From: a virus
Lineage: Duplodnaviria; Heunggongvirae; Uroviricota; Caudoviricetes
IMG/VR virus record: IMGVR_UViG_3300042346_001601
DNA length: 64,000 nt
Strand: one strand, 5' to 3'
Below the pieces are notes generated by a model, which was given only the letters and a program-made list of their open reading frames with translations, was not told the DNA's origin and did no database searches. Positions 28,891 to 60,514 of this stretch are shown here, one piece after another. How positions within the stretch are numbered: the first letter of the stretch is position 1; each line of letters begins with the position of its first letter. The position numbers were made by a program, and so were the translations under genes.

Positions 28891-28931
28891 ACGAATTTTC
28901 GTGTCTCCAAATGACGGAGTTATAACCAATG

Positions 28932-29279: not shown

Positions 29280-29339
29280 AAGCCCAAATCCAACAGCACA
29301 ATGCCCACGCTATTTGTGCCTTCGCTTATCTGCAAAACG

Positions 29340-31078: not shown

Positions 31079-31088
31079 AACTGTAAAA

Positions 31089-31307: not shown

Positions 31308-31316
31308 TTTTTTGTT

Positions 31317-31526: not shown

Positions 31527-31547
31527 TAGTAAATCCTTTTTTCATAA

Positions 31548-32408: not shown

Positions 32409-32422
32409 AGTTTTTTGTTTTT

Positions 32423-33257: not shown

Positions 33258-33266
33258 ATCAAAGGT

Positions 33267-33983: not shown

Positions 33984-33990
33984 AATGGTG

Positions 33991-34000
33991 CAAATATATA
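33991..34000 (-). promoter_or_regulatory. putative promoter element (sense TATATATTTG) upstream of ORF 33267..33983
   Basis: TAnnTTTG match. Confidence 0.25.
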
Positions 34001-34079
34001 CATTTTGTAACTAAAAACAAAATTTTTTAGAAAAATTACCAACCTCAACTATTTTGAATATCTAAGAGTATAACTTTCA

Positions 34080-39194: not shown

Positions 39195-40730
39195 TTAAAC
39201 TGAGGCAACAAAAGTTATTTTCATGCCTTCGGAGGGATGAATCAGATAGGCTTGAAGAGCTCTATTGGATCCTTCAAACCCGTGTTGGTGATGCCATCTA
39301 TCAGAACCAGACAGACTCGGCATTTGATAAACCTTCACCCCATTGAAGTCCTTCACCATCTCATGATGCAGGTGTCCAGTAAAGAAGAATCTGTGTTTGG
39401 TTCTGGACCAAAAATCAGGAGCTTCTCTGGCCATAAGGTAAGGAAGCTCTGAAAGTTTGGTTCCGTCACCGTGCGTGAATCCCATGAGATTTTCACCGTA
39501 TTCGTAGTACTGACGGAATTTATGACATTTAATCACCTCTACATCTTCACAGCTCCTATAATAGGCTCCCAAATACTCCAAAAGAACATGAGAAAGTTTG
39601 AAGTCGTGATTGCCCGCAGTTAATAAAATCTCAACGGGAGCCACCCCTCTCAGGATATCGATGAATTCTACCATCAGTTGCTGGCCCTCCACCATGATCT
39701 GGATAAAAGTACCATCGCAGTCCTGAGGTGTGCCTTTGGTCGTGGTTCCACCGAGGGTATCAACATGAAAAAAATCGGATCCTACAGGAATAATAATTTT
39801 CTCAATCTGATACTTAACAACATCGGACAAGATGGAGGCAGTTTTTCCGAGTAATAAATCCCGGGCCATTTGACGGTTGTATTCATCCCTCACCTCTCCT
39901 GACCAGGCATATTTCCCGTAGTGCAGATCAAAGGGAGAAATAACGAGGGAATGAGGTTCTCCGGGAGGCAGGGTCAATTTAGGAACCTCGTACTGGGCAA
40001 AAACCTGGGATAATTTTTCGGCCAAAGGATTGATAACCAGACCCTTAAAAGCCCACCAATTTGAGGCTGCCTCTTTGATCATTTTTTCCTCTTGCCGGGT
40101 GTATTTCTGGAAGAATGAAAATTTTCTTTTTTGTAGAGCATCTGAAACCATCTCTTCCTCGTCTCGGACGAACATTTCTTCGTCGGTATAGGGTTCGGAG
40201 TCGTGGGTCCAGCCCAGAATAGATTTAAGGGCGGTAAATATGTTTCTAGGTATTTCGAAATTCCGACAGATTTCGTTGATGGTTTCTGCACTGCCGGTCA
40301 GAGAAGAATAACGGGATTTCATGTCCCTAATGATGGTGCCGGTAAATCGATAGGCTTTGTTCTTGATGTACACTATATAGAGATCTTTTGCCTCATCATA
40401 GTAGTAGTTGGTGTTGTGCTTGTATTTTTTGTAGGCAGACCGGGCTATTTTTTCCTCCTCTTTGTCGATTTCTAATTCCATAGAAGGAGGAATTTCCTCC
40501 TGCCTGAATTTTTCCTCGATCGATTGTCTTAGAACATCTTCCGGTAATTCTTCTGACAGCTTGGCAGAGATTGCTCTTCTAAAAGAATCAATGGCCGAAG
40601 TGCCCAGATTTAGAAATTTTTCGGAAACCAATTTTTTGGCTATCTCAGTATGAGAAAAACCTTGACCGTGTAAAGACCAGATTTCCTCTGAGAATTTTTC
40701 GGCTAGGTCCTTGAGTGAAATTTGACTCAT
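39195..40730 (-). CDS. large metallophosphoesterase (calcineurin-like/Mre11-SbcD-like motifs in C-terminal half) with N-terminal HTH-like region
   Basis: ISPFDLHYG, VGSDFFHVD, TAGNHDF, GHLHHE motif series; N-terminal GFSHTEIAKKL helix-turn-helix-like. Confidence 0.6.
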   Translation of the reverse strand: MSQISLKDLAEKFSEEIWSLHGQGFSHTEIAKKLVSEKFLNLGTSAIDSFRRAISAKLSEELPEDVLRQSIEEKFRQEEIPPSMELEIDKEEEKIARSAYKKYKHNTNYYYDEAKDLYIVYIKNKAYRFTGTIIRDMKSRYSSLTGSAETINEICRNFEIPRNIFTALKSILGWTHDSEPYTDEEMFVRDEEEMVSDALQKRKFSFFQKYTRQEEKMIKEAASNWWAFKGLVINPLAEKLSQVFAQYEVPKLTLPPGEPHSLVISPFDLHYGKYAWSGEVRDEYNRQMARDLLLGKTASILSDVVKYQIEKIIIPVGSDFFHVDTLGGTTTKGTPQDCDGTFIQIMVEGQQLMVEFIDILRGVAPVEILLTAGNHDFKLSHVLLEYLGAYYRSCEDVEVIKCHKFRQYYEYGENLMGFTHGDGTKLSELPYLMAREAPDFWSRTKHRFFFTGHLHHEMVKDFNGVKVYQMPSLSGSDRWHHQHGFEGSNRALQAYLIHPSEGMKITFVASV

Positions 40731-41875: not shown

Positions 41876-42928
41876 TTATTCTAATTCCTCGAGAGAGTTG
41901 GAGAGATATTTGGTGATTTTATAAGGATCCGCATTTGATCCTGGTCTCCTGTCTTCAAGATAACCCAACCACTTATCAGAGGTAGAAATGGGTATTCTGA
42001 TTGATGCTCCTCTATCACTTACACCCCAACTGAATTTCGAAATGCTTTGGGTTTCGTGCTTGCCGGTAAGTCTCAGATGATTGTCCGATCCATAGAGGGA
42101 AATAGCAACATCGTGGGTTTTTTCCAGCACTTGACAAATGCTGTTAAAAAATTCTTCCCCTCCTGTTTCTCTCATTCTATTATTTGAAAAATTGGTGTGC
42201 ATTCCTGATCCGTTCCAATCTTCCTCTGCTCCCATGGGCTTGGGGTGAAAGTCAACTTTGATCTGGTAATTTTCTGCAATTCTCATGAGCAAAAATCTAG
42301 ATATCCAAAGATCATCTGCGGCCGTCTGTTCTCCCTGGCCAAAAACCTGATATTCCCACTGACCGAGCATCACTTCGGCATTGGTGCCTGTGATCTGAAT
42401 GCCACAAGAAAGACAGGCATCCAAATGTTCCTCTGAAATATTTCTGCCAGCGGAATAAGGATGACCGACTGAACAATAATACTTGCCCTGAGACTCGGGT
42501 GGGTTGAAATTTTCAAATCCTACCGGCCGATTACTATTTTTATTGAACCACCTGAGCACATACTCTTGCTCAAACCCAAACCAAAGAGCATGAGAATCCT
42601 TTCCGATCAAGGCTCTAGTATTGGAAGAATGTGGGGTGCGGTCTGGATTTAGAACCTCACACATTACGAGATAGCAAAAGCCCATTCTGAGAGGATCTGC
42701 ATAAACCCTCACTGGTTTTAGAATCAAATCTGAGAAATTACCTTCAGCCTGCCGGGTGGAACTTCCATCAAAAGACCATTCTGGAAGTTCTTCTGGTCTA
42801 GGTTTTGCGTGTTGGGGCGAAAGAGTGTTCAGATTTGACGGGGTATAATCGAAAATCTTTACTTTTGATCTCAAATTTGGTTCGGGTTGATATCCATCTA
42901 ACCAAACATACTCCAATTTTAATTTCAT
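41876..42928 (-). CDS. glnII: glutamine synthetase, type II (eukaryote-like GSII)
   Basis: Near-collinear with eukaryotic GSII: YVWLDG, LPEWSFDGSST, FGFEQEY, YYCSVG, ITGTNAEVMLGQWEYQ, KPMGAEEDWNGSGMHTNFS, SIRIP, YLEDRRPGSNADPY. Confidence 0.9.
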   Translation of the reverse strand: MKLKLEYVWLDGYQPEPNLRSKVKIFDYTPSNLNTLSPQHAKPRPEELPEWSFDGSSTRQAEGNFSDLILKPVRVYADPLRMGFCYLVMCEVLNPDRTPHSSNTRALIGKDSHALWFGFEQEYVLRWFNKNSNRPVGFENFNPPESQGKYYCSVGHPYSAGRNISEEHLDACLSCGIQITGTNAEVMLGQWEYQVFGQGEQTAADDLWISRFLLMRIAENYQIKVDFHPKPMGAEEDWNGSGMHTNFSNNRMRETGGEEFFNSICQVLEKTHDVAISLYGSDNHLRLTGKHETQSISKFSWGVSDRGASIRIPISTSDKWLGYLEDRRPGSNADPYKITKYLSNSLEELE

Positions 42929-44141: not shown

Positions 44142-44876
44142 TTAAAATTTTTCGGACGATAATTTCATGCTCATTAGGTCATCTAAAATAGGACCCATAA
44201 GGTAATACTCTGCTGAAGGTTGGCCCTTATCACAAACTCCAGGCTGGGAATACCAGTGGACGTTATAGTGATAATGATTGTGAACTTTGCTGCTCATTCT
44301 TTTAGACCCTTCAACCTCGTTTGTCCAGGGATCTTCTCCATCAACAATGTTTTGGATTAAGTACTCTCTATTCCAGATAGTTGCATTATGAGAGTGGAGA
44401 TAATTTTCTCCTTGACTGTGCTTCATGATCCTAACCTTGTTAATGACGTAAGGGGTAGGATCTAGGCGGTAGGCATCGTAATAGTGTAATTTGGTGTGAA
44501 TCTTGATGGATTCCGCCTTTTGGACTTCTGCGAACAGCAAAAGTTGTTCTAAAACGGGATAGGGAAAAGAAGATTTTAGCCACATATCTTCCTGGAGATA
44601 AATGATCCATTTTGAGGTAATTTCGGATAAGGTTTTTTTCATTCTGGTGGAAAATCCATTTTTATCCGTCTTTCCGGTCAAAATGCTTTGCATCGCGGAG
44701 TTAGGCTTGAAGAGGTGACCCCTGCACGAAAGTTCAAAATCCTTGACATTCCGTTCTTCGGATGCCCAATAAACAGGGATTTTTTCAAAATCCCAGTACA
44801 GGTCTAAGGAATACAACATACCAAACCAAAACTGATGGTACGAATCACACGTGTGAACAACCAAAGAAAGATCCAT
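44142..44876 (-). CDS. hypothetical protein (first gene of glycan cluster)
   Basis: 244-aa ORF. Confidence 0.45.
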   Translation of the reverse strand: MDLSLVVHTCDSYHQFWFGMLYSLDLYWDFEKIPVYWASEERNVKDFELSCRGHLFKPNSAMQSILTGKTDKNGFSTRMKKTLSEITSKWIIYLQEDMWLKSSFPYPVLEQLLLFAEVQKAESIKIHTKLHYYDAYRLDPTPYVINKVRIMKHSQGENYLHSHNATIWNREYLIQNIVDGEDPWTNEVEGSKRMSSKVHNHYHYNVHWYSQPGVCDKGQPSAEYYLMGPILDDLMSMKLSSEKF

Positions 44877-44877
44877 G

Positions 44878-45879
44878 TTATAAAGTGTTAAAATAATTAG
44901 ATTGCTGGAGATGTTTCAAATAATCTAAAATTTTCAGAAATTCTTCCGGTCTTTTCTCGCCGTGGAGAACCTTGATGTCCCTTTTAGAAGGAGGAATTCT
45001 ATAAAAATTAAGAGAATAGTCCTTATTTTCCTCCGACATCCAGGTGGAAAATCCTGGATGTCCCTCTTCATAAAAATGACAAACCGTGTTGATCCCATCT
45101 CTTAAATTTATATAGCATAGTGGAAATCCTTCGTTGGTTTTTTTCCACGATAAAACGTTGTAGATTGTCTCTTCGTGAAAAGCGGCAACCCTAGATAAAC
45201 TAATTTTCAATTTGGGAAGCAGAAAACAGAATTCCCTCCATGTTTTAACAAAATTCAAACAAGATGAATTACAGAGTATAACGTTGGTTGTTCTGTAGGT
45301 TCCCCTAGATTCCGCAGGCATTTCTAAAAATTGCATTAAAGGCCATTCTAGGGTTTTGGTTAAATCGGCCTTTGGCCAGCACCCTTCAAATGGATTTCCT
45401 CTTTCAAACCCATTTGGCTCGACTATGATCATATATTGATGAATGCCCTCCGTGCAAACTGGGTAGTCTTTTACGATGGGCATCCAATCGAACATTTCGT
45501 CGATTATAGGAGAAGCTATACAATCCGAATCTAAGTAGCAGAGCTCTTCGAAACCTTCTTCTAAAGCCAGCTGCATAGCCATAGTCTTAGCACATAAAAT
45601 TTTATAAATTTTTGGATTTTCTCTGGTAACGTAAAAATTACCATTAGCTTGATGAGTAAAATTATCTAGGTAGTCTTCATCCAGTTCTAGATCTAAATTT
45701 CTAAAGATAACTTTTTCCAGTCCTTTAAAGAAAAGGGACGCATCAGGAGAGCAATTTACACCGCAAACAATAATAGGAAATTTAGAGAAGAGTTCTATAC
45801 TTGTAGCTAAATTTTTGGCTATGTCTAGATAATTTTCAGTGGCATGTGTAATAAAAGCTCTTTTCATACAAATTCCCAT
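44878..45879 (-). CDS. possible GT-A fold glycosyltransferase
   Basis: N-terminal Rossmann-like FITHATENYLDIA... and DxD-like YLDSDCIA. Confidence 0.4.
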   Translation of the reverse strand: MGICMKRAFITHATENYLDIAKNLATSIELFSKFPIIVCGVNCSPDASLFFKGLEKVIFRNLDLELDEDYLDNFTHQANGNFYVTRENPKIYKILCAKTMAMQLALEEGFEELCYLDSDCIASPIIDEMFDWMPIVKDYPVCTEGIHQYMIIVEPNGFERGNPFEGCWPKADLTKTLEWPLMQFLEMPAESRGTYRTTNVILCNSSCLNFVKTWREFCFLLPKLKISLSRVAAFHEETIYNVLSWKKTNEGFPLCYINLRDGINTVCHFYEEGHPGFSTWMSEENKDYSLNFYRIPPSKRDIKVLHGEKRPEEFLKILDYLKHLQQSNYFNTL

Positions 45880-46790
45880 CCTCCTCCTGGAAACTTTTCG
45901 GCTTGATCCAAAACGTCAAAAATTTTACCATTTCTCCAAAACTCGAATTTTTGTAAACTAGGATCAATCTCAAATTGTTGGAACTCTGATATTGTCATCT
46001 TTTGGATATCGTTATCCTTTCTTATAAAGATTTCCAAGGGTTGTTTCACATCGTAAACCAAACAGTGTTGGGGATCTGCGGTGCCAACATTTTTGGAGAA
46101 ATAAATTTTGAATTCCTGCCAGGGAGAATAATTGTAAAAATCTTCGTGCCAATTACGAAAAGTGTAAATATGATCTTCGATAATAAAATCCCTGTTAATT
46201 GAAACATTAATTTTTTGGGCAAGATCTGCCCAAAAGTGTTCCGCACAATCAAACTCCAAACATCTTTCCCAAATAAATTCAGATTCTAGATTTTCTAATT
46301 TTGATTGTGAGACGGAAAAAAATTGGGAAGCACAATCATTAATTAATTTTTTTCCATTTTCGGTTGTTCTAAAAGCAAAAAAAGATTCTTGGTTTTTGTA
46401 TTTGATGAAATTTAAAATTTGATTATCGATGACCAAATCATATAGCATAAAATAATTCATGTCATAATTTAGAATCCTTGCAAGTTGAACTAATTTCAGA
46501 ACCTGAGAAAACCCAGCAAAACGGTTATTTCTCCAAAATCTGTAAAATTTAATTTTTTTCGCTCCAAAAAATTCTTCTTTCCAAAAAAGGTTAGAAGAAT
46601 CCTCTTTTAATGGGTTATTTGGGTTGAAAAAATAAAAATCAACTAAGTTTAGAATGTCTCTTTCCAGATGAATAGACGAATAAAGCAAAATAGATGTGTC
46701 TATTTGCCTTAAAAGTTCCAAATTAATTTTTAGAACTTTTCTTTTTTCTTCTGAATCACAATGAGAACTAATTAAAACTAATTTTTTCAT
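45864..46790 (-). CDS. uncharacterised family protein (paralog 1 of 3 in cluster)
   Basis: N-terminus KKLVLISSHCDSEEKRKVLKINLELL...SIHLERDILNLVDFYFFNPNN aligns with N-termini of 49799..50920 and 56003..56983. Confidence 0.45.
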   Translation of the reverse strand: MKKLVLISSHCDSEEKRKVLKINLELLRQIDTSILLYSSIHLERDILNLVDFYFFNPNNPLKEDSSNLFWKEEFFGAKKIKFYRFWRNNRFAGFSQVLKLVQLARILNYDMNYFMLYDLVIDNQILNFIKYKNQESFFAFRTTENGKKLINDCASQFFSVSQSKLENLESEFIWERCLEFDCAEHFWADLAQKINVSINRDFIIEDHIYTFRNWHEDFYNYSPWQEFKIYFSKNVGTADPQHCLVYDVKQPLEIFIRKDNDIQKMTISEFQQFEIDPSLQKFEFWRNGKIFDVLDQAEKFPGGGWEFV

Positions 46791-46797
46791 AATTCTT

Positions 46798-47439
46798 TTA
46801 AAAATTAATTTTTTTTAAATATCCATTTGGATTAAAAGTGACATTGTAACCATAAAAATCACACCATTTTCTATCTATTTCGAATTGTGGATTTTGTGGT
46901 AAAAATTCTTCTATCGCTCTAAGAGGACCTCCGTCATAGTTTTTTTCGATGCCCATCCAATTCACAGTTCCGTCTTCAACGATCATATAGGAATCTTCGC
47001 TGATTAAATCTTTGAATTTATTCATCACAGACAAAACATCGTTATAGTTGTGTGACCCATCTTCAATCAACATAATTTTTTTAAATGAGGATGCATAATC
47101 CAAGTTGTATTCTTGATAACCTCCCAAGAATCTCTGAATTCTTGGATGTCGATTAATCAAACCCCTCTTTTCTTCGGAATTTGATAAAAAAGTTTCATCC
47201 TGAATATCCACAGTATGAACCATACCTTTACCTATATTATTTAAAATATCACCCAAATACAGACACGATCCTCCATAATTAGTCCCTATTTCTATTATCA
47301 AATCGGGTCTTATTTCATTAATTATCATTTGATACATTACGTAATCAAATGGGGATTTTTCAGTTATAATTCCTCTATATAAAGTTTTTAGATGTCCATC
47401 CATGATACCATCTAAATTTAAGTTGTATGAATTGTTCAT
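46798..47439 (-). CDS. class I SAM-dependent methyltransferase, CmcI/rhamnosyl-O-methyltransferase-like
   Basis: DLIIEIGTNYGGSCLYL motif I; MVHTVDIQDE; family architecture of CmcI-type sugar O-MTases. Confidence 0.55.
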   Translation of the reverse strand: MNNSYNLNLDGIMDGHLKTLYRGIITEKSPFDYVMYQMIINEIRPDLIIEIGTNYGGSCLYLGDILNNIGKGMVHTVDIQDETFLSNSEEKRGLINRHPRIQRFLGGYQEYNLDYASSFKKIMLIEDGSHNYNDVLSVMNKFKDLISEDSYMIVEDGTVNWMGIEKNYDGGPLRAIEEFLPQNPQFEIDRKWCDFYGYNVTFNPNGYLKKINF

Positions 47440-47449
47440 TTTTTTTATT

Positions 47450-47854
47450 TTAAAGATCCACTCTCATAGTATTGCACTCCCTGAAAAATCCACATCTTTC
47501 ATAGAAATTAATTCTCTCATCGAAACAGGATAGAATAACCTTATAACATCCAAGATCCCTGGCTTTTTCCAAAGCTTTTTGAACCAATAAAAAACCAATT
47601 TTATTACCTCTAAATTTTTCTTTCACCGCCACATCTTCAATGAATCCTGCTAACCCGCCATTTCGGATTAATTTTCTTTGGAGATGGAGTGTAATTGTTC
47701 CTATGATTTCTTGTTCTTCAACCGCAACAAAATTGTAATTATTTGTCATCCATTCAGATAAAACGTTTTCTTGTATTTCTGTGATGTACCAGGTCTCCTT
47801 CAAGATTTCCAGTAATCCAGCTTCATCTCCCTTCTGAAATTCGCGAATGGTCAT
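47450..47854 (-). CDS. GNAT family N-acetyltransferase
   Basis: motif A VAVKEKFRGNKIGFLLVQKALEKA (Q/R-x-x-G-x-G/A). Confidence 0.8.
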   Translation of the reverse strand: MTIREFQKGDEAGLLEILKETWYITEIQENVLSEWMTNNYNFVAVEEQEIIGTITLHLQRKLIRNGGLAGFIEDVAVKEKFRGNKIGFLLVQKALEKARDLGCYKVILSCFDERINFYERCGFFRECNTMRVDL

Positions 47855-47859
47855 AAATG

Positions 47860-49020
47860 TTATTTTTGTGATTCGATAACGTTTTGAATCACAAATTCAA
47901 TATCATCATCGGTTAAAAATAAATGTAAAGGTAAACTAATAATTTTCTCGCTCAGGTTCAATGAATTCGGATTCAACCCAAATTGTGATTTGTACATATC
48001 ATAATGGGTATTATCACGATAATGAACTCCTGGATATATCCCACGAATATTTAAAAATTCCATAGTTTTGTTTCTTTCTTCCACAACAATTTGATACAAA
48101 TGCCTAGAAGAAAGTTCTGTGTACGGAGAAACTTTAACTGACTGGATGCCTGCAGATTGAAATGACTTTTCATACATTTGGCAGATTTCTCTTCTTCTGG
48201 TGTTATCCTCTTCAAGATATTTCAAACCAACTAAAGCCATCGAAGCCATCATAGAATTACCATGATATTTGAAACCAACATCAACGAGATCATATTCCCA
48301 TTTATAACTTCCTTTGTCGTGTGATCTTTGGTAAGTGTCTTTAGAAATTCCAAGCCAAGATAATTTTCTGGCTAATACGTCATAATCTTCATTCTTGAAA
48401 CAGATCATTCCCGAATCTGCGGTCGGAAGATTTTTGACCGCCTGAAAACTAAAAATAGAAACATCAGCATCTAAACCAACATGATCTTTCGAGTAACCAA
48501 CACCAACCTCTGTTTTGTTTTTTATCCAGGTTCCAGCCATATGTGCGGCATCTAAAATAATTTTAAGGCCTTTGCGTTGGCAAAAATTTACTATTTCATC
48601 GAACCTCCCGGCATTACCCCCAATTCCCACAAATAAAACAGCTTTGGTTTTTTTGGTGATTTTTGATTCTACTGATTTTGGATCCAGACATAGAAATTCA
48701 TCTACGTCTGCAAAGATTGGTCTCAGTCTTTCGTACATTATTGCGTGATTTGAAGACACAAAAGTTAAGGGGGACGTGATAATCTCGTCTCCTTCTTTCC
48801 ATTTATTGGCGTCTTTTAAAATTTTTAAGGCAAGATGCAAACCAGAGGTGTTCGAATTTAGAAAATGCGCATGCTTAAATCCGGTGTATTTTTTCCATTC
48901 TTCTTCAATCTGCTGAGTTTTAAAACCTAAACCTGTCCATCCTATTTCCATACACTCTTGCATATGTTCCCAGATTTCTGATGTTCTGAACTTAGGTTTG
49001 AATAATTGAATATTTTTCAT
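47860..49020 (-). CDS. DegT/DnrJ/EryC1/StrS-family PLP-dependent sugar aminotransferase
   Basis: 386 aa; DAAHMAG...; PLP-lysine context SIFSFQAVKNL; overall collinearity with ArnB/FdtB-type enzymes. Confidence 0.85.
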   Translation of the reverse strand: MKNIQLFKPKFRTSEIWEHMQECMEIGWTGLGFKTQQIEEEWKKYTGFKHAHFLNSNTSGLHLALKILKDANKWKEGDEIITSPLTFVSSNHAIMYERLRPIFADVDEFLCLDPKSVESKITKKTKAVLFVGIGGNAGRFDEIVNFCQRKGLKIILDAAHMAGTWIKNKTEVGVGYSKDHVGLDADVSIFSFQAVKNLPTADSGMICFKNEDYDVLARKLSWLGISKDTYQRSHDKGSYKWEYDLVDVGFKYHGNSMMASMALVGLKYLEEDNTRRREICQMYEKSFQSAGIQSVKVSPYTELSSRHLYQIVVEERNKTMEFLNIRGIYPGVHYRDNTHYDMYKSQFGLNPNSLNLSEKIISLPLHLFLTDDDIEFVIQNVIESQK

Positions 49021-49031
49021 TCTTAAAAAAT

Positions 49032-49802
49032 TTAAAAATTATGAAATTTTTGATTGAAAATCGATTTAATTTCATCTAAATCTTTTTCTGTTATTTCAGT
49101 TTGAGCTTTAGATGACATTGAATCTTCTTTTTTTTCATAAACAAATGATGGATAATCAAGATATCCTATTCTACCGCGAAGAGATAATTCAAAATTGGTA
49201 GCCCAATCTATGAAATGCTTATTTTTAACATAACTTAAATCAATGTCAGTGAAATTTCTAAAAAATCTTGATGATGAGTAGCACAAGTTACTATGATGTA
49301 AAAGTTTTTTGTCAATTTCTCCGTCACTAATTGGATGTAAAACGGAGTTATACTCTGTCATAGCAGCAATCCAAAAGCTCCCATCCGCCGAGGGAACCAA
49401 TTTTCTTCCTTCACTAATCAAATATCCAGTGCTAACGAGAGAAAAATCAGGATTATTTTCTAAAAAATCAAATTGTTTTTTTAGTTTATATGGATCTATC
49501 CAATAATCATCTGGGTCTATATAAGCAACATAAGAAGTTGAACAATTTTTGAGAAGAAAAATAACGGTTTCTATAAATCCTTTGTTTTCTTTATTGGAAA
49601 ATATCGAAATTTTAAAATTTTCGTTTTCAAAATTTTTTAATCTGTGTAAAATAGCCAGACTTTGATCTGTAGAACAGTCATCGCAGGCTATAAAATGAAT
49701 ATTGCAGTCGATTTTTTGCACGTAAACGGAAAAAAAAGCACGATCTAAAAAATAAGCATAATTGTAGACCGGCATTATAACACTTATTTCTTTTCTTTTC
49801 AT
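49032..49802 (-). CDS. glycosyltransferase family 2
   Basis: ISVIMPVYNYAYFLDRAFFSV...IACDDCSTDQS...YIDPDDYW (DxD). Confidence 0.8.
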   Translation of the reverse strand: MKRKEISVIMPVYNYAYFLDRAFFSVYVQKIDCNIHFIACDDCSTDQSLAILHRLKNFENENFKISIFSNKENKGFIETVIFLLKNCSTSYVAYIDPDDYWIDPYKLKKQFDFLENNPDFSLVSTGYLISEGRKLVPSADGSFWIAAMTEYNSVLHPISDGEIDKKLLHHSNLCYSSSRFFRNFTDIDLSYVKNKHFIDWATNFELSLRGRIGYLDYPSFVYEKKEDSMSSKAQTEITEKDLDEIKSIFNQKFHNF

Positions 49803-50920
49803 TCGATTTTATAGTAATTTTTTACCAAAGCATATTTAGACAAGTTTTCTCTTTTAATTTTTATAGAATCTGTGAATTGACATGTTTCATCTTCTATATT
49901 ATGTAATTTTTTTGTGAAAACTACAGAGTCCCCATCTACAAACAAATCATTCAATTTTTCTTTGTACCACCCTCCCTTTCCTAGAATTATTTCGCGATGG
50001 AAAATTTCTTCTGAATTTTCAGTAATAATCTTAATGGAGAAGCTGACTTCATTACAAGGGCAACCTGGTTCAACATTTAAAAGTAAATAACAATCCGATA
50101 GATCTTCCTTCCAGAATAGTGAAGAAGTTGTGGTGAAATGTAAAGCGCTTGGCCCAGGTTTTATGATCGAACTTACTGTATTCCAATTTCCGAATCCGAA
50201 AAATTTATCCATCTCGGAATGTTCATCAACTAGATTATTATCCCCGCCAAAAAGTTTTAGCATCACATCTTCAAGACCACAATTGGGAAAAATCTTTTGA
50301 AAATTGGAATTATCCGAAAAATCGAGATTTGGAATTTTTTGAATCAAACTTTCGTCCAAAGTAAACCCAAAAAGGTGTGGGCAATACCAGCTACTAAAAT
50401 TTGGATTATTTTTTATAAAGTAATTTTTGTGCTCCCCTAAATTCGAAAAAATTTCAGAGAATTTTTGTTGAATATTATCCGGACATTTGAAATCTCCAAC
50501 AAAATAAAAGGCAAATTCATATCCCTTTGACCACAAAAATTTAATCGAATTAACAAATTGGGAGACAATGGAAACCGACCAACCGGTAACAACCAAATGG
50601 TCTCTAAACATTTCATTTCCTATTTGAATGTATTTCAGGTAAACTGGATTTTGTATTCCCTCTAGATTGTAATTTAGAATGTCTGAATCAAGGAAATGAT
50701 AATTGTTTTTCCTTTCAAAAATAAAATAAGTAGTGTTTTCAATAATCTCGGGAGTACATGGATGGTGGCTAGTTAAAAGAACGTCTATCTCATTTTGTTG
50801 AAAAATTTTTAGATTGGCCAGAAGAATTTCTTGTTCCTCCGTGGTTTGGGGATATGCATCTATGATGACACAGAACTTTTTATCTGATATTTTTTCTCCT
50901 ATTAAATTATCAGAATTCAT
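49799..50920 (-). CDS. uncharacterised family protein (paralog 2 of 3)
   Basis: N-terminus KKFCVIIDAYPQTTEEQEILLANLKIF...TSHHPCTPEIIENTTYFIFERKNN. Confidence 0.45.
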   Translation of the reverse strand: MNSDNLIGEKISDKKFCVIIDAYPQTTEEQEILLANLKIFQQNEIDVLLTSHHPCTPEIIENTTYFIFERKNNYHFLDSDILNYNLEGIQNPVYLKYIQIGNEMFRDHLVVTGWSVSIVSQFVNSIKFLWSKGYEFAFYFVGDFKCPDNIQQKFSEIFSNLGEHKNYFIKNNPNFSSWYCPHLFGFTLDESLIQKIPNLDFSDNSNFQKIFPNCGLEDVMLKLFGGDNNLVDEHSEMDKFFGFGNWNTVSSIIKPGPSALHFTTTSSLFWKEDLSDCYLLLNVEPGCPCNEVSFSIKIITENSEEIFHREIILGKGGWYKEKLNDLFVDGDSVVFTKKLHNIEDETCQFTDSIKIKRENLSKYALVKNYYKIE

Positions 50921-50921
50921 G

Positions 50922-51851
50922 CTAAGACAAGATCTTTTTATTCTGCCAAGCCCAGATCATATTTCCAGTGTGGTGTGTTTGAAATCCATTTTCTGAAAAG
51001 ATAAGCAATAATTGATCCGGAGGATGAATATGATATTCCAAAACTATCTTTGGTATAGACTTTAAAAATTCAGAGCTCATGTTTGGAAAAATTTCCCATT
51101 CACCTCCCTCGCAGTCTATTTTTAAAAAATCTATTTTTACCTCATTTTCTTTTGCCCATTCTTCCAGGACAACTCCTTGACAAAAAACACTTTCATCGGT
51201 GTGATCGAACGAAACAGAAACTGAATTCAAAACACTTGACTCATGAATATTTAGTTTCAAATCCTTTTTTTCCGACCACACAGCTAAATTGTGGACATGA
51301 ATTGGCAAATCACCGAAGTTTGTTTGAATAAAACTTGATAGCTTGGGGTCTGGTTCAAACGAGTGAACTTGTGCAGCTCCTTTTGTAATCGAAAAAAAGG
51401 AAAAGAAACCGATGTTTGCCCCAATATCAACAACAACATCTCCAGGTTCCACTTTACAATGTTCGTGGTTGTATTCCCCACTTAAAAAAATCTCCCAAAG
51501 TACAAGCCCTGTTACTAAGTCTTTTTTTGAAAGATTACTTCCTATATTTTTCAACCTGTTCTTTGGGTCCAAATTTCTTATATCATGCCTAAAAGTATCT
51601 GAGTAATCACAAACTTCGAGTAGGATTTCTCCAGTTTGCAAATCCTCTACTACAAAAGTGATAAATTTTGTGATTCTACCGCTATATGCTACCCAGTATG
51701 AACATTTGGGAAAAACATTAATTATGTCACCCCAATAACACAATCTTGTGTGAGAATCTATAAACTTAATTACAATTTCCCTTTCCTCGTCAAAATGACT
51801 GGTAAAGTCTATCCCGTTTCTATCCGGTAAAATGTGATTTAGAGAGATCAT
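50922..51851 (-). CDS. FkbM-family methyltransferase
   Basis: VVDIGANIGFFSFFSITKGAAQVHSFEPDPK matches FkbM (Methyltransf_21) signature. Confidence 0.7.
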   Translation of the reverse strand: MISLNHILPDRNGIDFTSHFDEEREIVIKFIDSHTRLCYWGDIINVFPKCSYWVAYSGRITKFITFVVEDLQTGEILLEVCDYSDTFRHDIRNLDPKNRLKNIGSNLSKKDLVTGLVLWEIFLSGEYNHEHCKVEPGDVVVDIGANIGFFSFFSITKGAAQVHSFEPDPKLSSFIQTNFGDLPIHVHNLAVWSEKKDLKLNIHESSVLNSVSVSFDHTDESVFCQGVVLEEWAKENEVKIDFLKIDCEGGEWEIFPNMSSEFLKSIPKIVLEYHIHPPDQLLLIFSENGFQTHHTGNMIWAWQNKKILS

Positions 51852-51858
51852 AATTTTT

Positions 51859-52635
51859 TTATTTATTATTTTGTCTTAGAACTTCTTTCTCCTTATTGAA
51901 ACAATGCAAAGAAGTGATGTGCATGGTAAAAAATCCAGGTTTAACCTCGCCCCAGGATTCGGGATTTCTTTCCCTCAATTTTTCTAGAACCCAAAAAACT
52001 TTCCGACAAGCCATATAGATATCGTCTCTAAAGTGGCGGAGATAGTCACAGGACCTGATGTAATACACGATGTGTAGATAATCCGCTCTTCTCATAAAAT
52101 GATAGCCGATTGTACAAGGAACTCGTTCCCCGTGGACAGATCCAGTGTCTTCCGGGAACCACAGGGGCAGAAAAGCCTGTCTAGTGAAAGGTTCTCTTGC
52201 CAACAAATCAATCACATCACCAAAGTCACCGTAGTTGTACCTAATGCCAAACATGGTCGAATTGGGTTCTTCTGATGCAAATTTAGGCCAGAGTCTTTCT
52301 GGATAAGTGTGAGAAAATTTCTCCTCTGTTTTGAATTGGGAATTCTTCTTTTGGTTGAAAGGCCACCATTCGTTAGAAGGAGGTGGATTCAGCGGCTGGC
52401 CCCCGATTCTTTCTTCAAAATGATCGTCCGCCCAGGGAAGATTAGGTCTGACCTCATCACGTAGTTCTTCGAGTGTGTGGGGGACAAACATAGAGAAAGA
52501 AGTATTTAAGGTTTCCCACATGTCGTCAGGGGAAGGTATACCCTGCCATCTCTCGGTCTGTACGACATATCCGTGATCGATCAATTTTTCCTTAGCCCAC
52601 TTGATGGCTTGTGAGGGCTTTTGAAATGTTTTCAA
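51859..52635 (-). CDS. thymidylate synthase-fold paralog: putative pyrimidine (dCMP-type) 5-hydroxymethylase/methylase
   Basis: C-terminal 120 aa collinear with ThyA: REPFTRQAFLPLWF~NDPDSRRIIVSAWN; ERVPCTIGYHFM~MALAPCHAFFQFY (catalytic Cys kept); YYIRSCDYLRHFRDDIYMA~LYQRSCDVFLGLPFNIASY with Asp replacing the ThyA Asn177 (the dCMP-hydroxymethylase-type switch); GFFTMHITSLHCF~GDFVWTGGDTHLY. Long divergent N-terminus. Confidence 0.7.
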   Translation of the reverse strand: MKTFQKPSQAIKWAKEKLIDHGYVVQTERWQGIPSPDDMWETLNTSFSMFVPHTLEELRDEVRPNLPWADDHFEERIGGQPLNPPPSNEWWPFNQKKNSQFKTEEKFSHTYPERLWPKFASEEPNSTMFGIRYNYGDFGDVIDLLAREPFTRQAFLPLWFPEDTGSVHGERVPCTIGYHFMRRADYLHIVYYIRSCDYLRHFRDDIYMACRKVFWVLEKLRERNPESWGEVKPGFFTMHITSLHCFNKEKEVLRQNNK

Positions 52636-52695: not shown

Positions 52696-53328
52696 TCAAT
52701 CTAAAATCCAGGAAGATATTTTTTCAGGGGAAATTAAATTCAAATCTCTGGTTCTATTTTGCTGGAAAATTTTATACTCAAAATATGGGTTATCGAAAGG
52801 AACGAGCTCTTGGCTTTCCCTTTTGATCAGTCCAACACCTTCGTCGGTATTAACAGTACAAATATTCAGATCTGGCCTGGTTGCCTTTAACTTATAGATA
52901 GTTTTCCAAACTGTTCCATTCCATGCTACTCCAAGATAATCTTCGATGACCCGAATGTAATTTACTTCATACATAAAAGGATCACAATCATGAAGAACTA
53001 TAACTCCCTCTTCTGTCAAGTGATTCAAAGAATTTAAGATGTCTTTTTCTACCTGGTAAGAAAGGTGTAATCCGTCGATAAAAATAAGATCCCACTCATA
53101 ATCAGGAGGTAAATCCAACAGATTATTTTCTAGCCTGGAAAAAAATTCATCAGAGGTAAACGGATACTTGACCGGATTTTCAGGATTTTCTAGACCTGGA
53201 TCGACCCCAGATTTCTCTTCGCATTGAATTAAATCGTAACAATCCTCAGGCCATCTTACTCCTATCTCCAAGTAGGTGCTAAATTTTTTGGTACTGATAA
53301 TCTGATTGATCACTTCTGATCTATGCAT
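52696..53328 (-). CDS. class I SAM-dependent methyltransferase (Methyltransf_24/CmcI-like)
   Basis: STYLEIGV motif I; DLIFIDGLH; VIVLHDCDP. Confidence 0.55.
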   Translation of the reverse strand: MHRSEVINQIISTKKFSTYLEIGVRWPEDCYDLIQCEEKSGVDPGLENPENPVKYPFTSDEFFSRLENNLLDLPPDYEWDLIFIDGLHLSYQVEKDILNSLNHLTEEGVIVLHDCDPFMYEVNYIRVIEDYLGVAWNGTVWKTIYKLKATRPDLNICTVNTDEGVGLIKRESQELVPFDNPYFEYKIFQQNRTRDLNLISPEKISSWILD

Positions 53329-53618: not shown

Positions 53619-54206
53619 TTAATTTGCTATTTGAAATTTTTTAGGATCTGTAAAGGCCGGCTTACGATTTGGAAAATAATAAGTTATTTTTTCTTTCTTG
53701 TCGATGGTTAGGATTTTCCAAAAACCAGTTGGAACTGTTGCTCCCGTACTTAATTTTTCAGGAGACCCTGAAAAATCTAGTTTAATGAGAACGTCGACCT
53801 GATGAAATTCTGCTACCAATTGTCTCTCTTTGGCCTCTAAAATTCTCCAAACCCCCCGATTTAAATCTTGGTGTTGGAGAGCACAGTTGAGGTAGGAGAA
53901 AGTTCTTACTAGTGACTCCTTAGAACAACTGAAAGTAGCCGCCGGGGCTAGGTGCCCTTTGTCCCAGATATTCTTTTCGTAATCCGCATGATCAGAGGTA
54001 ATGATGGAATCAACCCGGTAAAAATCCAATCCTTGTCTGCTCTCCTTTGCCGCAGTACATCTGACCGAGTATGATAATTCTAGAGGTTGCTGATATATTT
54101 CAGAGTAAACGAGAGAGTATTCCCCCGCATTAACCGCTACAGATGCTCTTTGTGAATATGTACAAAAAGGAAAAAAAAGGACAAAAAGTAAAATTCTTGA
54201 TAGCAT
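53619..54206 (-). CDS. secreted non-specific DNA/RNA endonuclease (Serratia NucA/EndoG family)
   Basis: N-terminal signal peptide MLSRILLFVLFFPFCTYSQ; active-site motif DKGHLAPAA (DRGH motif). Confidence 0.7.
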   Translation of the reverse strand: MLSRILLFVLFFPFCTYSQRASVAVNAGEYSLVYSEIYQQPLELSYSVRCTAAKESRQGLDFYRVDSIITSDHADYEKNIWDKGHLAPAATFSCSKESLVRTFSYLNCALQHQDLNRGVWRILEAKERQLVAEFHQVDVLIKLDFSGSPEKLSTGATVPTGFWKILTIDKKEKITYYFPNRKPAFTDPKKFQIAN

Positions 54207-54503: not shown

Positions 54504-55289
54504 CTATTGTTTATTCTGATTTTTCTGAAATTCTTCTTTTCTCCTGGTAAAAATCAGGGACTTTTGATCAAGCCATTCTTTTTCACTTGTTTCATCCACT
54601 TTTTCTATTTCTTTAGGATGAGTTAAAGAATTCGAATGTTTCCTATAAATGTAGCTAGGGTAATGATCGTAGTTAATCTTACCCCTTAAGCTTAATTCAT
54701 AATTCATGGGCCAATCTGAATACGGAAATTCGAAAAAGTAAGGCTGAAAAAGATCCTCATAATTTCTAAAAAAACGGGAGGATGCATATACACAGTTCCT
54801 GCCGGTAGAAATAAATTCAGGGGAGGTGAAATTTTTATCCATAAATTCTTCGGGAACTCCAAAAAATAAATCTCCTTCTGGATGTGGACAAAATCCATAC
54901 TCTCCTTCTAAAGTTAAATAACCGGTAGAAGACGCGGAAAATTCTGGATTACTCTCAAGAAAATCAAATTGTTTCTGTAATTTATAAGGATCTATCCAAT
55001 AGTCATCACCATCAAGATAGGCTATATAATTTCCTTTAGCTTTAGAAAGTAATCTTTTAACTGTTTCTACTTCTCCCTTATTTTCTGTGTTGATAAAAAA
55101 GTCGAATTTGTCCTGCCCGTAAAATTTTTTGAACCGTGTTAAAATACCAGCGCTCTGATCTTGAGAAGAATCATCCCCCACTAATACTTGCACGTCGAAA
55201 TTGGTGATCTGCGAAAAAACGGAAAAAAGAGTCGTATCAAGAAATTCAGAGAAGTTGTAATTTGGAATTATGACGGTAACGGAGCTCAT
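54504..55289 (-). CDS. glycosyltransferase family 2 (paralog of 49032..49802)
   Basis: VTVIIPNYNFSEFLDTTLFSV...VGDDSSQDQS...YLDGDDYWIDPYKLQKQFDFLESNPEF (cf. YIDPDDYWIDPYKLKKQFDFLENNPDF). Confidence 0.8.
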   Translation of the reverse strand: MSSVTVIIPNYNFSEFLDTTLFSVFSQITNFDVQVLVGDDSSQDQSAGILTRFKKFYGQDKFDFFINTENKGEVETVKRLLSKAKGNYIAYLDGDDYWIDPYKLQKQFDFLESNPEFSASSTGYLTLEGEYGFCPHPEGDLFFGVPEEFMDKNFTSPEFISTGRNCVYASSRFFRNYEDLFQPYFFEFPYSDWPMNYELSLRGKINYDHYPSYIYRKHSNSLTHPKEIEKVDETSEKEWLDQKSLIFTRRKEEFQKNQNKQ

Positions 55290-55306
55290 TTTTCTCTACT
55301 CAATTT

Positions 55307-55693
55307 CTATTTTTGTGAATCACCTTTCCAAACACGATAAGAATCCTCGTCAAAGTGTTGGGTGGAAACCTCGAAGATTATCCCATCCGTTATTGCTTCC
55401 AGTTGATGTGGTTGGCCGGGCATTTGTCTGACCGAATCACCTTCTATTAAATTTTTTTCAACCACTTCTGCGTTGCGGGTGTCTATATACCGATAAATAA
55501 AAGTGCCTTCCTTTACGTACCAAGTTTCATCTTTGATCAAATGATAGTGCATTGAAAATTTGGCTCCTCCCTTAAAACATAGAAGTTTTCCACAATACAG
55601 TTCGTTATTTTCGAAGACAACCTCATGACCCCATCCTTTAGGGATGTTGCACTCATCGCAGGAGGGTACATGATATATAATAGGTGGTTCCAA
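55307..55693 (-). CDS. cupin-fold sugar isomerase/epimerase-like protein (WxcM/FdtA-like)
   Basis: 128 aa; HYHLIKDETWYVKEGTF cupin motif; size and context (next to GT2, aminotransferase, acetyltransferase) as in Fdt-type pathways. Confidence 0.5.
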   Translation of the reverse strand: MEPPIIYHVPSCDECNIPKGWGHEVVFENNELYCGKLLCFKGGAKFSMHYHLIKDETWYVKEGTFIYRYIDTRNAEVVEKNLIEGDSVRQMPGQPHQLEAITDGIIFEVSTQHFDEDSYRVWKGDSQK

Positions 55694-58048: not shown

Positions 58049-60514
58049 ATGAAAAGAATATCCAAGAATTACAAAAAATTAAGATTATTCGAATCTGAGG
58101 AAGAACTAAAAGTCCCAGATGATGAAAAGCTTTGGCAAGCATACGGTGAGGATATGACCAAAGCAGCGAAGGAGGGAGAGATAAATGAAGTAATTGGAAG
58201 GGATAAGGAATTGGAACAGTTGCTTCGCATTCTGGCCAGGAAAACCAAGGATAATCCAGTTTTGGTTGGAGAGCCGGGCGTTGGAAAAACCGCTATTGTG
58301 GATAAGCTTGCTCTTTTAATGGCAAGCGATAAATGTCCCGGTTTTTTAAAGGGGAAAAAGTTAATAGATTTGACCTGGGCATTTAAAAAAATAGTTAATG
58401 GAGGTTATTTACCCCTTTTGGCCCGTGAAATTGAGGAAGATAACTTGATTATTTTTGTGGACGAACTCCATTCTCTACCTAAAGCAAGTTACGATGAACT
58501 CAAACCCTTTTTGGCTAAAGCCAAACTTCATATGATCGGTGGTTCCACTTATAGTGAATATGGTCAAACTATTGAGAAAGACGGAGCCATGGAAAGAAGA
58601 TTTCAACCGATCAAAGTTGAAGAGCCTACCTACGAGGAATGCATGGAAATACTTAGAGAAATCCAAGAAAAATATGGGGATTGGCATCATGTTAATTATT
58701 CACCAGAAGCCTTAGAATCCTTTTATAAACTATCTAAGCAGTATATTAAAGACCGATTTTTGCCAGATAAAGCTATCGACTTGATGGACGAATCCGGTGC
58801 ACGAATTCGCATTAAAAATGCCCCGGATGCGGAGGTTGCGAATCTAGAAAAGAAAAATTTAGAACTCCTAGACCGGATCAGGCAAAAGACGGCAGAAGGT
58901 GACTATGATGCTGCTGCAGATCTATCAGATGAAAAAGAAAAGATAGAGAGTCGGCTTGAAAAAATGGCTGCGAAAGGTCAAATGGGACCTAAAATTACCG
59001 TCACTAAAGAAATGGTGGAAAAACTAGTGGCAGATAAAACAGGGATTCCTGTTGAAACGATGAAAAAGGGCAGTAAGGCAATCCTAAAAGGAATGTCAAG
59101 CAGACTGAAATCAAAAGTTATCGGTCAAGACGAGGCGGTAGAGACCGTTGTTAGAACAATTAAAAGAAACAGGTCGGGTCTTAAAGACCCTAATAGACCT
59201 GAAGGGGTATTTTTATTCGTGGGCCCTACTGGGACAGGTAAAACCTATTTGGTGAAAAAATTGGCTGAGGAGCTTTTTGGATCTAGGGAATCTAAATTGA
59301 TTAGGATTGATATGAATGAATATTCGGAGGCTCATACAGGATCTAAATTGTTTGGATCACCTCCCGGTTATGTAGGTTATTCGGAAGGAGGCAAACTAAC
59401 AGAGCAAGTCAGAAGAAACCCTTATTCGGTAATTTTGCTAGATGAGATCGAAAAAGCAAACCCTCAAGTTATACAATCCCTGCTAGGGGTGCTAGAAGAT
59501 GGAAGGATGACGGACGGGCAAGGGAGAACGGTTGACTTTACAAACTGTGTTATTATCATGACTTCTAATGTGGGATCAAAAACAGGATCTAAAAAGGTTA
59601 AATCAAAGGAACCCAGAAAAGCGATTGGTTTTTTGGTTAAAGATGAACCAGAAGATGAAACAAAACAGACTGGAGCAGAATCACCTGAGGAAATCAAAGC
59701 AAGAGTCGATGCAGCGATCAAAAAAGAGTTTTCGCCCGAATTTATTAATAGAATAGATGATATTGTTATTTTTCAGTCAATAGACCAAGAATCAATAAAA
59801 AAGATTGCAGAAAAAGAGCTCGAGAAGGTGGCAGATAGGATTAAAAATACCCAAGACATTAATCTGACTTGGGGAACTTCGGTTTACAAGTTGTTACTTA
59901 AACACGGATTTGACCCTGAATATGGGGCTAGACCCCTTAGAAGAGCAGTGGAGAAATATATCAAGGACCCTCTAGCCAATTTTATAATCGAGGAAGAGAT
60001 TGAGGAAGGATCCAACCTCAAAATTGATTACGATTCCTTGGCAGATGAGTTAGTCATTAACGGAAAGAAAATTTCAGAGTTATCTGAATCTAGACTCAGA
60101 AAAATCCACAAAAGTTTTTCTTTGTTCGAATCTACAAGTCCTAGAAGAATCAATAGTTTTTCAGAATTTAGCGATAGATTAGACGAGGCGGAAACAGAAA
60201 GGGAGAAAGAAGAGGAAAAGGGAAAACCAGCTCCTTTGCCTAAACCACTGCCTAAACCACTGCCTAAACCTACGCCTAAACCACAGCCTAAGCCTACTCC
60301 TAAACCTACACCCAGTGAGGATGAAGATGAGGATGAGGATTTTGATCCAGATGCAGAACCGGTCCGAAGAATAACTCCTCATCCGTCAATTGCACCACGA
60401 ATTAAAGTTCCTTCTCATGCTCCTGGACCCCAAGCAATAAAGAAAAAAGCTTCAGAGATGGATGTGATCAAAAGGTACATATCAGAACTCAAAAAAAGAA
60501 AACCATTTTACTAA
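58049..60514 (+). CDS. ClpC/ClpB-family two-ring AAA+ unfoldase lacking the N-domain, with short middle coiled coil and proline-rich acidic C-terminal tail
   Basis: D1: IGRDKELEQLLRILARKTKDNPVLVGEPGVGKTAIVDKLA; D2: VIGQDEAVETVVRTIKRNRSGL...FLFVGPTGTGKTYL...ILLDEIEKANPQV; sensor-2 GARPLRRAV; C-terminal PKPLPKPLPKPTPKPQPKPTPKPTPSEDEDEDEDFD. Confidence 0.85.
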   Translation: MKRISKNYKKLRLFESEEELKVPDDEKLWQAYGEDMTKAAKEGEINEVIGRDKELEQLLRILARKTKDNPVLVGEPGVGKTAIVDKLALLMASDKCPGFLKGKKLIDLTWAFKKIVNGGYLPLLAREIEEDNLIIFVDELHSLPKASYDELKPFLAKAKLHMIGGSTYSEYGQTIEKDGAMERRFQPIKVEEPTYEECMEILREIQEKYGDWHHVNYSPEALESFYKLSKQYIKDRFLPDKAIDLMDESGARIRIKNAPDAEVANLEKKNLELLDRIRQKTAEGDYDAAADLSDEKEKIESRLEKMAAKGQMGPKITVTKEMVEKLVADKTGIPVETMKKGSKAILKGMSSRLKSKVIGQDEAVETVVRTIKRNRSGLKDPNRPEGVFLFVGPTGTGKTYLVKKLAEELFGSRESKLIRIDMNEYSEAHTGSKLFGSPPGYVGYSEGGKLTEQVRRNPYSVILLDEIEKANPQVIQSLLGVLEDGRMTDGQGRTVDFTNCVIIMTSNVGSKTGSKKVKSKEPRKAIGFLVKDEPEDETKQTGAESPEEIKARVDAAIKKEFSPEFINRIDDIVIFQSIDQESIKKIAEKELEKVADRIKNTQDINLTWGTSVYKLLLKHGFDPEYGARPLRRAVEKYIKDPLANFIIEEEIEEGSNLKIDYDSLADELVINGKKISELSESRLRKIHKSFSLFESTSPRRINSFSEFSDRLDEAETEREKEEEKGKPAPLPKPLPKPLPKPTPKPQPKPTPKPTPSEDEDEDEDFDPDAEPVRRITPHPSIAPRIKVPSHAPGPQAIKKKASEMDVIKRYISELKKRKPFY
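60235..60312 (+). repeat. tandem ~12-nt repeats (cctaaaccactg-like) encoding (PKPx)n
   Basis: cctaaaccactgcctaaaccactgcctaaacctacgcctaaaccacagcctaagcctactcctaaacctacaccc. Confidence 0.7.

Follow-up and report, generated by a model that had tools for sequence, protein, structure and literature searches.

A 64,000 nucleotide stretch of tailed-phage DNA (Caudoviricetes; IMG/VR record IMGVR_UViG_3300042346_001601), termed here the window, carries two genes of the thymidylate synthase (TS) superfamily. One encodes a canonical ThyA. The product of the second, termed here the TS-like protein, is by its predicted structure a very divergent TS fold, and it has aspartate at the position of Asn177 in Escherichia coli ThyA, the residue that sets the specificity for the pyrimidine base. 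It is probably an enzyme that modifies cytosine nucleotides at C5 in one way or another. A 5-hydroxymethyl-deoxycytidine monophosphate (dCMP) synthase is the version favoured, with about an even chance of being correct. The features on which the argument rests are listed below; counts of conserved residues refer to 122 representatives of clusters formed at 50% identity, and A2 is an alignment of 53 diverse family members that are 37–52% identical to the TS-like query.

51859..52635, minus strand: TS-fold paralogue, predicted dCMP-specific C5-modifying enzyme; 258 amino acids (aa), intact open reading frame (ORF), TTG start
52123..52125, minus strand: R171, aligned with E. coli L143 (Asp145 in T4 gp42); family-invariant Arg, 121/122
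52114..52116, minus strand: C174, catalytic nucleophile (E. coli C146, T4 C148); kept in 120/122
52045..52056, minus strand: R194-S195-C196-D197 (E. coli R166-S167-C168-D169; phosphate and folate/pyrimidine site); R194 in 120/122, D197 in 117/122
52021..52023, minus strand: D205, base-specificity residue (E. coli N177, T4 gp42 D179); kept in 119/122, invariant in A2
51898..51906, minus strand: H244-C245-F246 (E. coli H207-L208-Y209); H244 in 120/122, F246 in 105/122
4645..6771, minus strand: canonical ThyA, Asn type, in two pieces (6454..6771 and 4645..5445)

Fold and active-site residues

The TTG start is credible because homologues of the 258 aa protein have the same N-terminus, MKTF.... Sequence searches place the protein at the margin of the known synthases. 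It scores 18.8 bits (E 9e-4) against the Pfam TS family (PF00303), which is below the gathering cut-off of 24.3 bits, and its best match to an NCBIfam ThyA model is 28.9 bits, where the cut-off is 174.55. PHROG 160 ('thymidylate synthase') is matched more strongly (E 9e-26). A search of PDB sequences gave marginal TS matches only, to residues 137–200, and the N-terminus could be settled only through structure prediction.

An AlphaFold2 model was built from an alignment of 58 homologues (predicted local distance difference test score, pLDDT, 78.9; predicted template modelling score 0.81). With this model, Foldseek matched TS-superfamily structures only, with E-values of 2.7e-11 for MilA, about 1e-10 for thymidylate synthases and 2e-10 for the dCMP hydroxylase of phage HY126. 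The model shows the TS alpha/beta fold over the whole chain, together with a low-confidence insertion around residues 80–135. The TS fold that the initial annotation had assigned to the paralogue is thus borne out. Its further remark, that the N-terminal region is unlike that of any TS, is wrong at the level of the fold.

The residue register was obtained by comparing A2, using hhalign, with E. coli ThyA, T4 gp42 and PaMx74 gp52, the E. coli and T4 reference sequences having been checked against PDB entries (1b49 for T4). Probabilities were 95.6% for ThyA, 94.2% over 187 columns for T4 gp42 and 96.8% for PaMx74 gp52. All three alignments concur in pairing C174 with the catalytic Cys, R194-S-C-D197 with R166–D169, D205 with N177 of ThyA, D179 of T4 gp42 and D205 of PaMx74 gp52, and H244 with H207. 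D205 is the second D of the RDD in residues 194–209, RSCDYLRHFRDDIYMA, and lies without gaps at +8 from the Asp of RSxD. The spacing is equal in E. coli (D169 to N177), T4 (D171 to D179) and PaMx74 (D197 to D205). In the model, D205 is in the first turn of a helix that starts at residue 202, after a strand that ends at D197. N177 of TS has a comparable position in the first turn of helix J.

The aspartate therefore stays where the initial annotation had put it, at the Asn177 position, and neither the alignments nor the model places it elsewhere relative to E. coli ThyA or T4 gp42. Also upheld are the retention of the catalytic Cys, in VPCT (residues 172–175), and the Asn type of the canonical ThyA of the window, RSVDTFLGLPFNIASY. 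The effect of the exchange is documented: N177 to Asp turns specificity from deoxyuridine monophosphate (dUMP) to dCMP (PMC13326640; PMC8670742), and dUMP-specific enzymes keep Asn (PMC8670742). Judged from the aligned sequences, D205 as a cytosine-type specificity residue is family-wide. The near-invariance of this Asp, the presence of a separate ThyA, and the DNA-precursor contexts in which relatives are found all argue for the earlier proposal of a cytosine enzyme rather than a redundant TS, with specificity and product predicted from the sequence.

Likeness to E. coli-type ThyA (PF00303), and to the window ThyA, extends to the fold, the catalytic Cys, the RSCD motif and the His207 equivalent. 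Unlike these enzymes, the TS-like protein has Asp for Asn177, has only one of the two Arg126/127 equivalents (R152-Q153), belongs to a family in which the R21 equivalent is not conserved, and lacks about 45 C-terminal residues. After the H207 equivalent there are 14 residues in the TS-like protein, 30 in T4 gp42, 54 in the window ThyA, 57 in E. coli ThyA and 58–63 in PaMx74 gp52; the TS C-terminal segment is thus absent. The residue that follows the catalytic Cys is Thr or Ser in the family, as in T4 gp42, and R76, R114 and H201 are further basic residues that are family-invariant.

Proposed hydroxymethylation of dCMP and alternative reactions

The substrate, cofactor, product and biological role proposed here are inferred from the fold, from the aligned and conserved residues and from the gene contexts. 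By analogy with TS and T4 gp42, Cys174 would add to C6 of dCMP, and Asp205 would form hydrogen bonds with N3/N4 of cytosine, thereby selecting C over U. A one-carbon unit, a methylene group, would be moved from methylenetetrahydrofolate onto C5. The C-terminus of TS closes the active site for hydride transfer, and the C-terminal deletion mutants of Carreras, Climie and Santi (1992) reportedly perform partial reactions only. Without this segment the active site of the TS-like protein would be left open, so that the exocyclic methylene intermediate would most likely be trapped by water to give 5-hydroxymethyl-dCMP. This product would then be phosphorylated and incorporated into phage DNA, which may in this way be shielded from host and phage nucleases. 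The Asn-type ThyA would supply thymidine monophosphate (dTMP), and the non-specific endonuclease encoded nearby could conceivably help to destroy unmodified DNA.

Hydroxymethylation is favoured over methylation because the C-terminal segment is absent, because Thr or Ser follows the Cys, and because no gene for dihydrofolate reductase (DHFR) was found nearby. A BLAST search for DHFR homologues was negative for the window and, in 80 related loci, for the sequence up to 10 kb from the TS-like gene. In PaMx74 the DHFR gene, frd, is in the same cluster as the TS homologue and only one gene (cd) away from it.

The TS-like protein resembles T4 gp42 (deoxycytidylate 5-hydroxymethyltransferase, PDB 1b49/1b5e) in several ways. 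Both have the catalytic Cys followed by Thr, RSxD with Asp at +8, an F-R-x-D-x motif around the specificity Asp and, close to the C-terminal end, S-L-H, and both lack the long C-terminus of TS. A separate, interrupted ThyA coexists with each of them. In jumbo-phage relatives the TS-like gene lies, like gene 42, between DNA polymerase and uvsX/helicase. The differences are considerable, however: identity is about 15%, the C-terminus is shorter even than that of gp42, and the low-confidence insertion is an additional feature of the TS-like protein.

Other observations speak against 5-hydroxymethyl-dCMP as the product, or against the assignment more generally. R171 is at the L143 position, where Asp or Glu is typical of hydroxymethylases, and Phe (F246) replaces the Tyr that follows the His in TS (Y209) and in gp42. 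The equivalent of the catalytic Glu (Glu58 in E. coli, Glu60 in T4) is ambiguous. In the T4 gp42 alignment (W61=W68 register) it is Asn65 that stands opposite E60, and the invariant Glu75, in E75-R76, is another candidate; it is found ten residues later, and prolines break the helix in the model. The loop with residues 159–170, just before the Cys, is of low confidence in the model. No homologues of deoxynucleoside monophosphate (dNMP) kinase, dCTPase-like protein or dCMP deaminase were found by BLAST in the 64-kb window. With queries from PaMx74, E. coli and the small-phage cassette described below, MazG/dUTPase, dNMP kinase, dCMP deaminase and DHFR were all absent from the window, and Pfam scans of 45 window ORFs likewise revealed none of them. 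No assayed member of the clade was found in the literature, and annotators label family members thymidylate synthase. Lastly, among seven Asp-type phage TS homologues tested, five produced 5-methyl-dCMP (5mdCMP), which makes methylation a common outcome for such enzymes (10.1101/2024.12.05.627091), and both the best profile score and the motif before the catalytic Cys are shared with PaMx74 gp52, an enzyme of a 5-methylcytosine (5mC) phage.

The last two points lead to the alternative that survives best, although it is an unlikely one, namely that the protein is a dCMP methylase (5mdCMP synthase) of the Xp12/PaMx74 kind. The methylene intermediate would then receive a hydride from the folate to yield 5mdCMP, phage DNA would have 5mC for C, and part of the pool of the triphosphate, 5mdCTP, would perhaps be deaminated to thymidine triphosphate (dTTP). 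The DNA of PaMx74 has C wholly replaced by 5mC, as cited in 10.1101/2024.12.05.627091. The enzymes of this group have Asp at the N177 position, and of the three references it is PaMx74 gp52 that gives the TS-like family its best profile score (E 2.5e-10). A motif before the catalytic Cys, W-x-P-E-D...G-x-R-(x)-V-P-C, is common to the family and PaMx74 gp52 and is absent in E. coli ThyA. In small phages the TS-like gene adjoins those for a dCMP-family deaminase and PolA, as in 5mC systems. In addition, the L143 position has no acidic residue. A rule for this position associates a hydrophobic residue with a methyl product and Asp or Glu with a hydroxymethyl product (PMC13326640), but since the family has an invariant Arg here, the rule is not applicable to it. 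Several findings argue against methylation. The C-terminal segment that TS needs for hydride transfer is missing, whereas PaMx74 gp52 is a near-canonical ThyA that keeps the full ThyA-like C-terminus, is 30% identical to E. coli ThyA, scores 100–108 bits on ThyA models (compared with 18.8 bits on Pfam TS for the TS-like protein) and has DHFR near its gene. The canonical ThyA of the window also makes a bypass from 5mdCTP to dTTP unnecessary.

It is improbable that the TS fold serves another chemistry or substrate here, such as that of a flavin-dependent C5 hydroxylase, a CMP hydroxymethylase like MilA, or some other C5 transferase. What may suggest this is a signature that fits none of the three characterized classes, with R171, Phe at Y209, an uncertain E58 and the invariant R76, R114 and H201, and with an R21 equivalent that is not conserved. 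The 5-hydroxy-dCMP synthases (RB69 gp48, DLP3 gp80, HY126 AfhB; PDB 9iqc/9iqu) are, like the TS-like protein, short phage proteins with the TS fold and Asp at N177. They have D169N and Glu at L143, where the TS-like protein has D197 and Arg. D169N is the mark of these flavin-dependent enzymes and was present in every one tested (PMC13326640). Since D197, the residue at this position, is Asp in all but five of the 122 representatives, the TS-like protein is not a hydroxylase by this signature, and identity with the 5-hydroxy-dCMP synthases was rejected. MilA (CMP 5-hydroxymethylase, PDB 5jnh/5b6d) differs in length (318–342 aa), has only 13–14% identity to the TS-like protein and has Asp at the L143 position. 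It acts on a ribonucleotide in Streptomyces antibiotic biosynthesis, whereas the context of the TS-like gene is phage DNA replication and deoxynucleoside triphosphate (dNTP) metabolism rather than nucleoside-antibiotic synthesis.

That the protein acts on dUMP despite its Asp, either as a redundant second TS or as a dUMP hydroxymethylase that starts thymidine hypermodification, is very improbable: the Asp is near-invariant where dUMP-specific enzymes have Asn, the scores are below the TS cut-offs of both Pfam and NCBIfam, the C-terminus required for dTMP formation is absent, and a canonical ThyA is already encoded in the window. In favour of a dUMP enzyme are the uniform annotation of members as 'thymidylate synthase', the reading of the Gordonia phage cassette as 'thymine synthesis' in a genome announcement (PMC10353413), and the finding that the cassette regions of the small phages inspected have no other annotated TS, together with an adjoining dCMP deaminase that would supply dUMP.

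Relatives and neighbouring genes

The TS-like family is large: clustering at 90% identity yields at least 4,875 groups, and at 50% several hundred. Representatives number 145, 304 and 674 at E-values below 1e-30, 1e-10 and 1e-3, respectively. The gene is found in 122–138 GenBank phage records, almost all with the annotation 'thymidylate synthase'. Among the carriers are Mycobacterium phage Muddy and about 80 Gordonia phages, as well as phages of Serratia, Streptomyces, Pseudomonas, Brevundimonas and Clostridium. Public assemblies contain a protein identical to the 258 aa product in 46 blocks, with contigs of up to 118 kb, and homologues at 70% identity come from phage contigs of 220–430 kb on which a type II topoisomerase domain and PolB are also encoded. 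With a low GC content of 30–41%, the window is part of a large phage and has many small co-oriented genes. Megablast of window positions 44000–64000 against known phages revealed no nucleotide similarity.

Some family members are unusually long (P0121, with 636 aa, and P0124, P0150, P0159, P0164 and others, with about 390–420 aa), and their match to the query is split in two near residue 100 or 190, which points to large insertions (inteins or additional domains) in the low-confidence loops.

The TS-like gene of Muddy, of Zuko, of Serbin and of Yersinia phage P744 is part of a conserved cassette that encodes a helicase, a thymidylate-kinase-like protein, a MazG/dUTPase-like protein, a protein of unknown function, the TS-like protein, a dCMP-family deaminase and PolA. 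Gordonia phages also have the gene in such a cassette. Metavirome contigs with modified cytosine are reported to have a neighbourhood of this type, with a TS with Asp, a deaminase, PRA-PH and PolA (10.1101/2024.12.05.627091). The unknown protein of the cassette is always encoded directly upstream of the TS-like gene:

Muddy gp47, locus L011, 5069..5962
Zuko gp75, locus L012, 4886..5947
Serbin gp51, locus L010, 5192..6001
P744 ORF027, locus L009, 5214..6047; annotated 'pyrimidine hmase synthase'

These proteins are of 270–350 aa, belong to PHROG 13667 / 34294 (unknown function) and have an invariant G-x-C-M motif. Sequence motifs had raised the suspicion of a second TS-like enzyme. This was rejected, as hhalign gave no match to the TS-like family or to T4 gp42. 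Searches of Pfam, PDB and NCBIfam also gave no match, and the window has no homologue.

Neighbouring genes were clustered and annotated with Pfam in the 80 closest IMG/VR loci. In jumbo-phage relatives PolB is about 7.8 kb upstream of the TS-like gene, and downstream are RNase HII, a RecA/UvsX-like protein (+4.3 kb), a DnaB-like helicase (+5.7 kb) and Mre11/SbcC-like proteins (+7.6 and +8.6 kb). The order of PolB, TS-like gene, RecA/UvsX-like gene and DnaB-like helicase resembles the T4 gene order, 43-42-uvsX-41. Immediately upstream of the TS-like gene there is an inosine monophosphate dehydrogenase/guanosine monophosphate reductase-family gene in 26 loci (e.g. L060, 8886..9950) and a gene for a 230 aa metallophosphatase in 22; immediately downstream, a 276 aa protein without a Pfam match is encoded in 21. 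These contexts fit a role in DNA-precursor synthesis rather than redundancy.

In the window the TS-like gene is flanked by sugar genes and by an endonuclease gene:

44142..51851, 52696..53328 and 54504..55693, minus strand: glycan island, from Pfam matches
49799..50920, minus strand: 373 aa protein of the island, no Pfam or PHROG match
53619..54206, minus strand: non-specific DNA/RNA endonuclease (Pfam Endonuclease_NS, E=7e-22)

The island encodes two GT2 glycosyltransferases, a DegT aminotransferase, a GNAT protein, methyltransferases of the CmcI, FkbM and Methyltransf_24 types, and a small cupin, as well as unknown proteins of 244, 308, 333 and 373 aa. Of these, the block at 44142..51851 has the FkbM-type and CmcI-type methyltransferases, a GT2, the DegT and GNAT proteins, the 373 aa protein and three further unknowns. 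Its product is probably a methylated acetamido-sugar glycan. Loci L018, L019 and L042 display a conserved backbone that consists of genes for the Endonuclease_NS protein, the TS-like protein, proteins of 93 and 133 aa, a GlnA-like protein and an exonuclease. Into this backbone about 8 kb of sugar genes have been inserted, and they are found only in the window and in loci L013–L015, being absent from the other 77 of the 80 loci. In 17 of the 80 loci an Endonuclease_NS homologue is encoded no more than 10 kb from the TS-like gene; it is directly upstream in L018 and L019 (9366..9956) and about 650 bp upstream in L042 (8762..9346).

The AlphaFold2 model of the 373 aa protein (pLDDT 90) has a GT-A-like domain and a C-terminal beta-sandwich. 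Its best matches are xylosyltransferase, glycogenin and GnT-I and not the T4 DNA glucosyltransferases. There are 44 homologues, one of them fused to a GT92 domain, and some are encoded in phage or metagenome glycan clusters (with DegT, hexapeptide acetyltransferase, GT2, GT9, GT1 and methyltransferases) that have no TS-like gene. Glycosyltransferase and sugar genes are thus not co-inherited with the TS homologue, as would be expected of a DNA hypermodification cluster. A functional link between the TS-like gene and the island was therefore rejected as the default, given the inserted state of the island, its presence in three of 80 loci, and the glycan clusters that have the 373 aa family and lack a TS-like gene; the two are probably unrelated. 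A link to DNA glycosylation had been considered because in RB69 and DLP3 a TS homologue is clustered with genes for sugar nucleotides and DNA arabinosyltransferase (PMC13326640). Given an active-site signature unlike those of the three characterized cytosine-directed classes, there is a slim chance that the clade installs an undescribed C5 modification of cytosine or feeds a hypermodification, in which case the adjacent glycosyltransferase, amino-sugar and O-methyltransferase genes might, in this phage lineage, decorate the modified base once the DNA has been replicated. It would follow that cytosine-modified genomes have gone unrecognized in Muddy, in the Gordonia CT-cluster phages and in many jumbo phages.

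The canonical thyA is interrupted by about 1 kb that contains a 323 aa ORF (5438..6409) with a match to DUF7487. The arrangement resembles T4 td, the insertion being a putative intron that houses an ORF of the homing-endonuclease type. A search for a group I intron in thyA gave no Rfam match, whether the gathering threshold or E<=1 was applied. Directly downstream of thyA, at 4004..4573 (minus strand), a probable free-standing homing endonuclease is encoded; its 189 aa include a NUMOD3 motif and, at the N-terminus, a GIY-YIG-like sequence (YVGIG...). Other genes of the window are as follows:

2735..3304, minus strand: 189 aa anti-defence protein, Pfam Tad3 (Type I Thoeris inhibitor), E 2e-35
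16716..17156: ribose-5-phosphate isomerase B
19592..35156, minus strand: region with an RNA-repair set, comprising the next five lines
19592..20047: PNKP-type HAD phosphatase
22265..23335: Rnl2-type RNA ligase with OB fold
23619..24068: cyclic-phosphate-processing cREC_REC protein
27968..28417: second cyclic-phosphate-processing cREC_REC protein
34080..35156: T4 Rnl1-type ligase
31548..32408: SPFH/Band 7 protein
33267..33983: R2K-clade ATP-grasp protein
39195..40730: 511 aa exonuclease, matching the PHROG 'DNA repair exonuclease' family
41876..42928: glutamine-synthetase-like protein
58049..60514: ClpB-like double AAA+ ATPase

Consequences for phages that carry the gene

The N177D switch is already known, and so is the pairing of an enzyme like that of gene 42 with an interrupted gene like td; the principle is textbook knowledge and has already been the subject of large-scale mining. 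The novelty is the clade, with its signature of R171, T/S175, F246 and no C-terminal tail, together with a correction of annotation, rather than a new principle. The clade enlarges the sequence diversity known for cytosine-modifying enzymes because PF00303 mostly misses it or gives marginal scores: E is 9e-4 for the window protein and about 1e-6 for those of Muddy and Zuko, and published metavirome mining screened PF00303 at 1e-7.

If the proposed function is correct, the present annotation of a large family, as 'thymidylate synthase' or as part of 'thymine synthesis', is mistaken. Its carriers would then replace or modify cytosine, and these include the therapeutically used Muddy, the many Gordonia phages, Serratia, Streptomyces and Pseudomonas phages, and many uncultured jumbo phages. 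Susceptibility to restriction and CRISPR, behaviour in sequencing and cloning, and host-range engineering of these phages would all be affected, and the clade may also provide a source of enzymes for making modified dNTPs.

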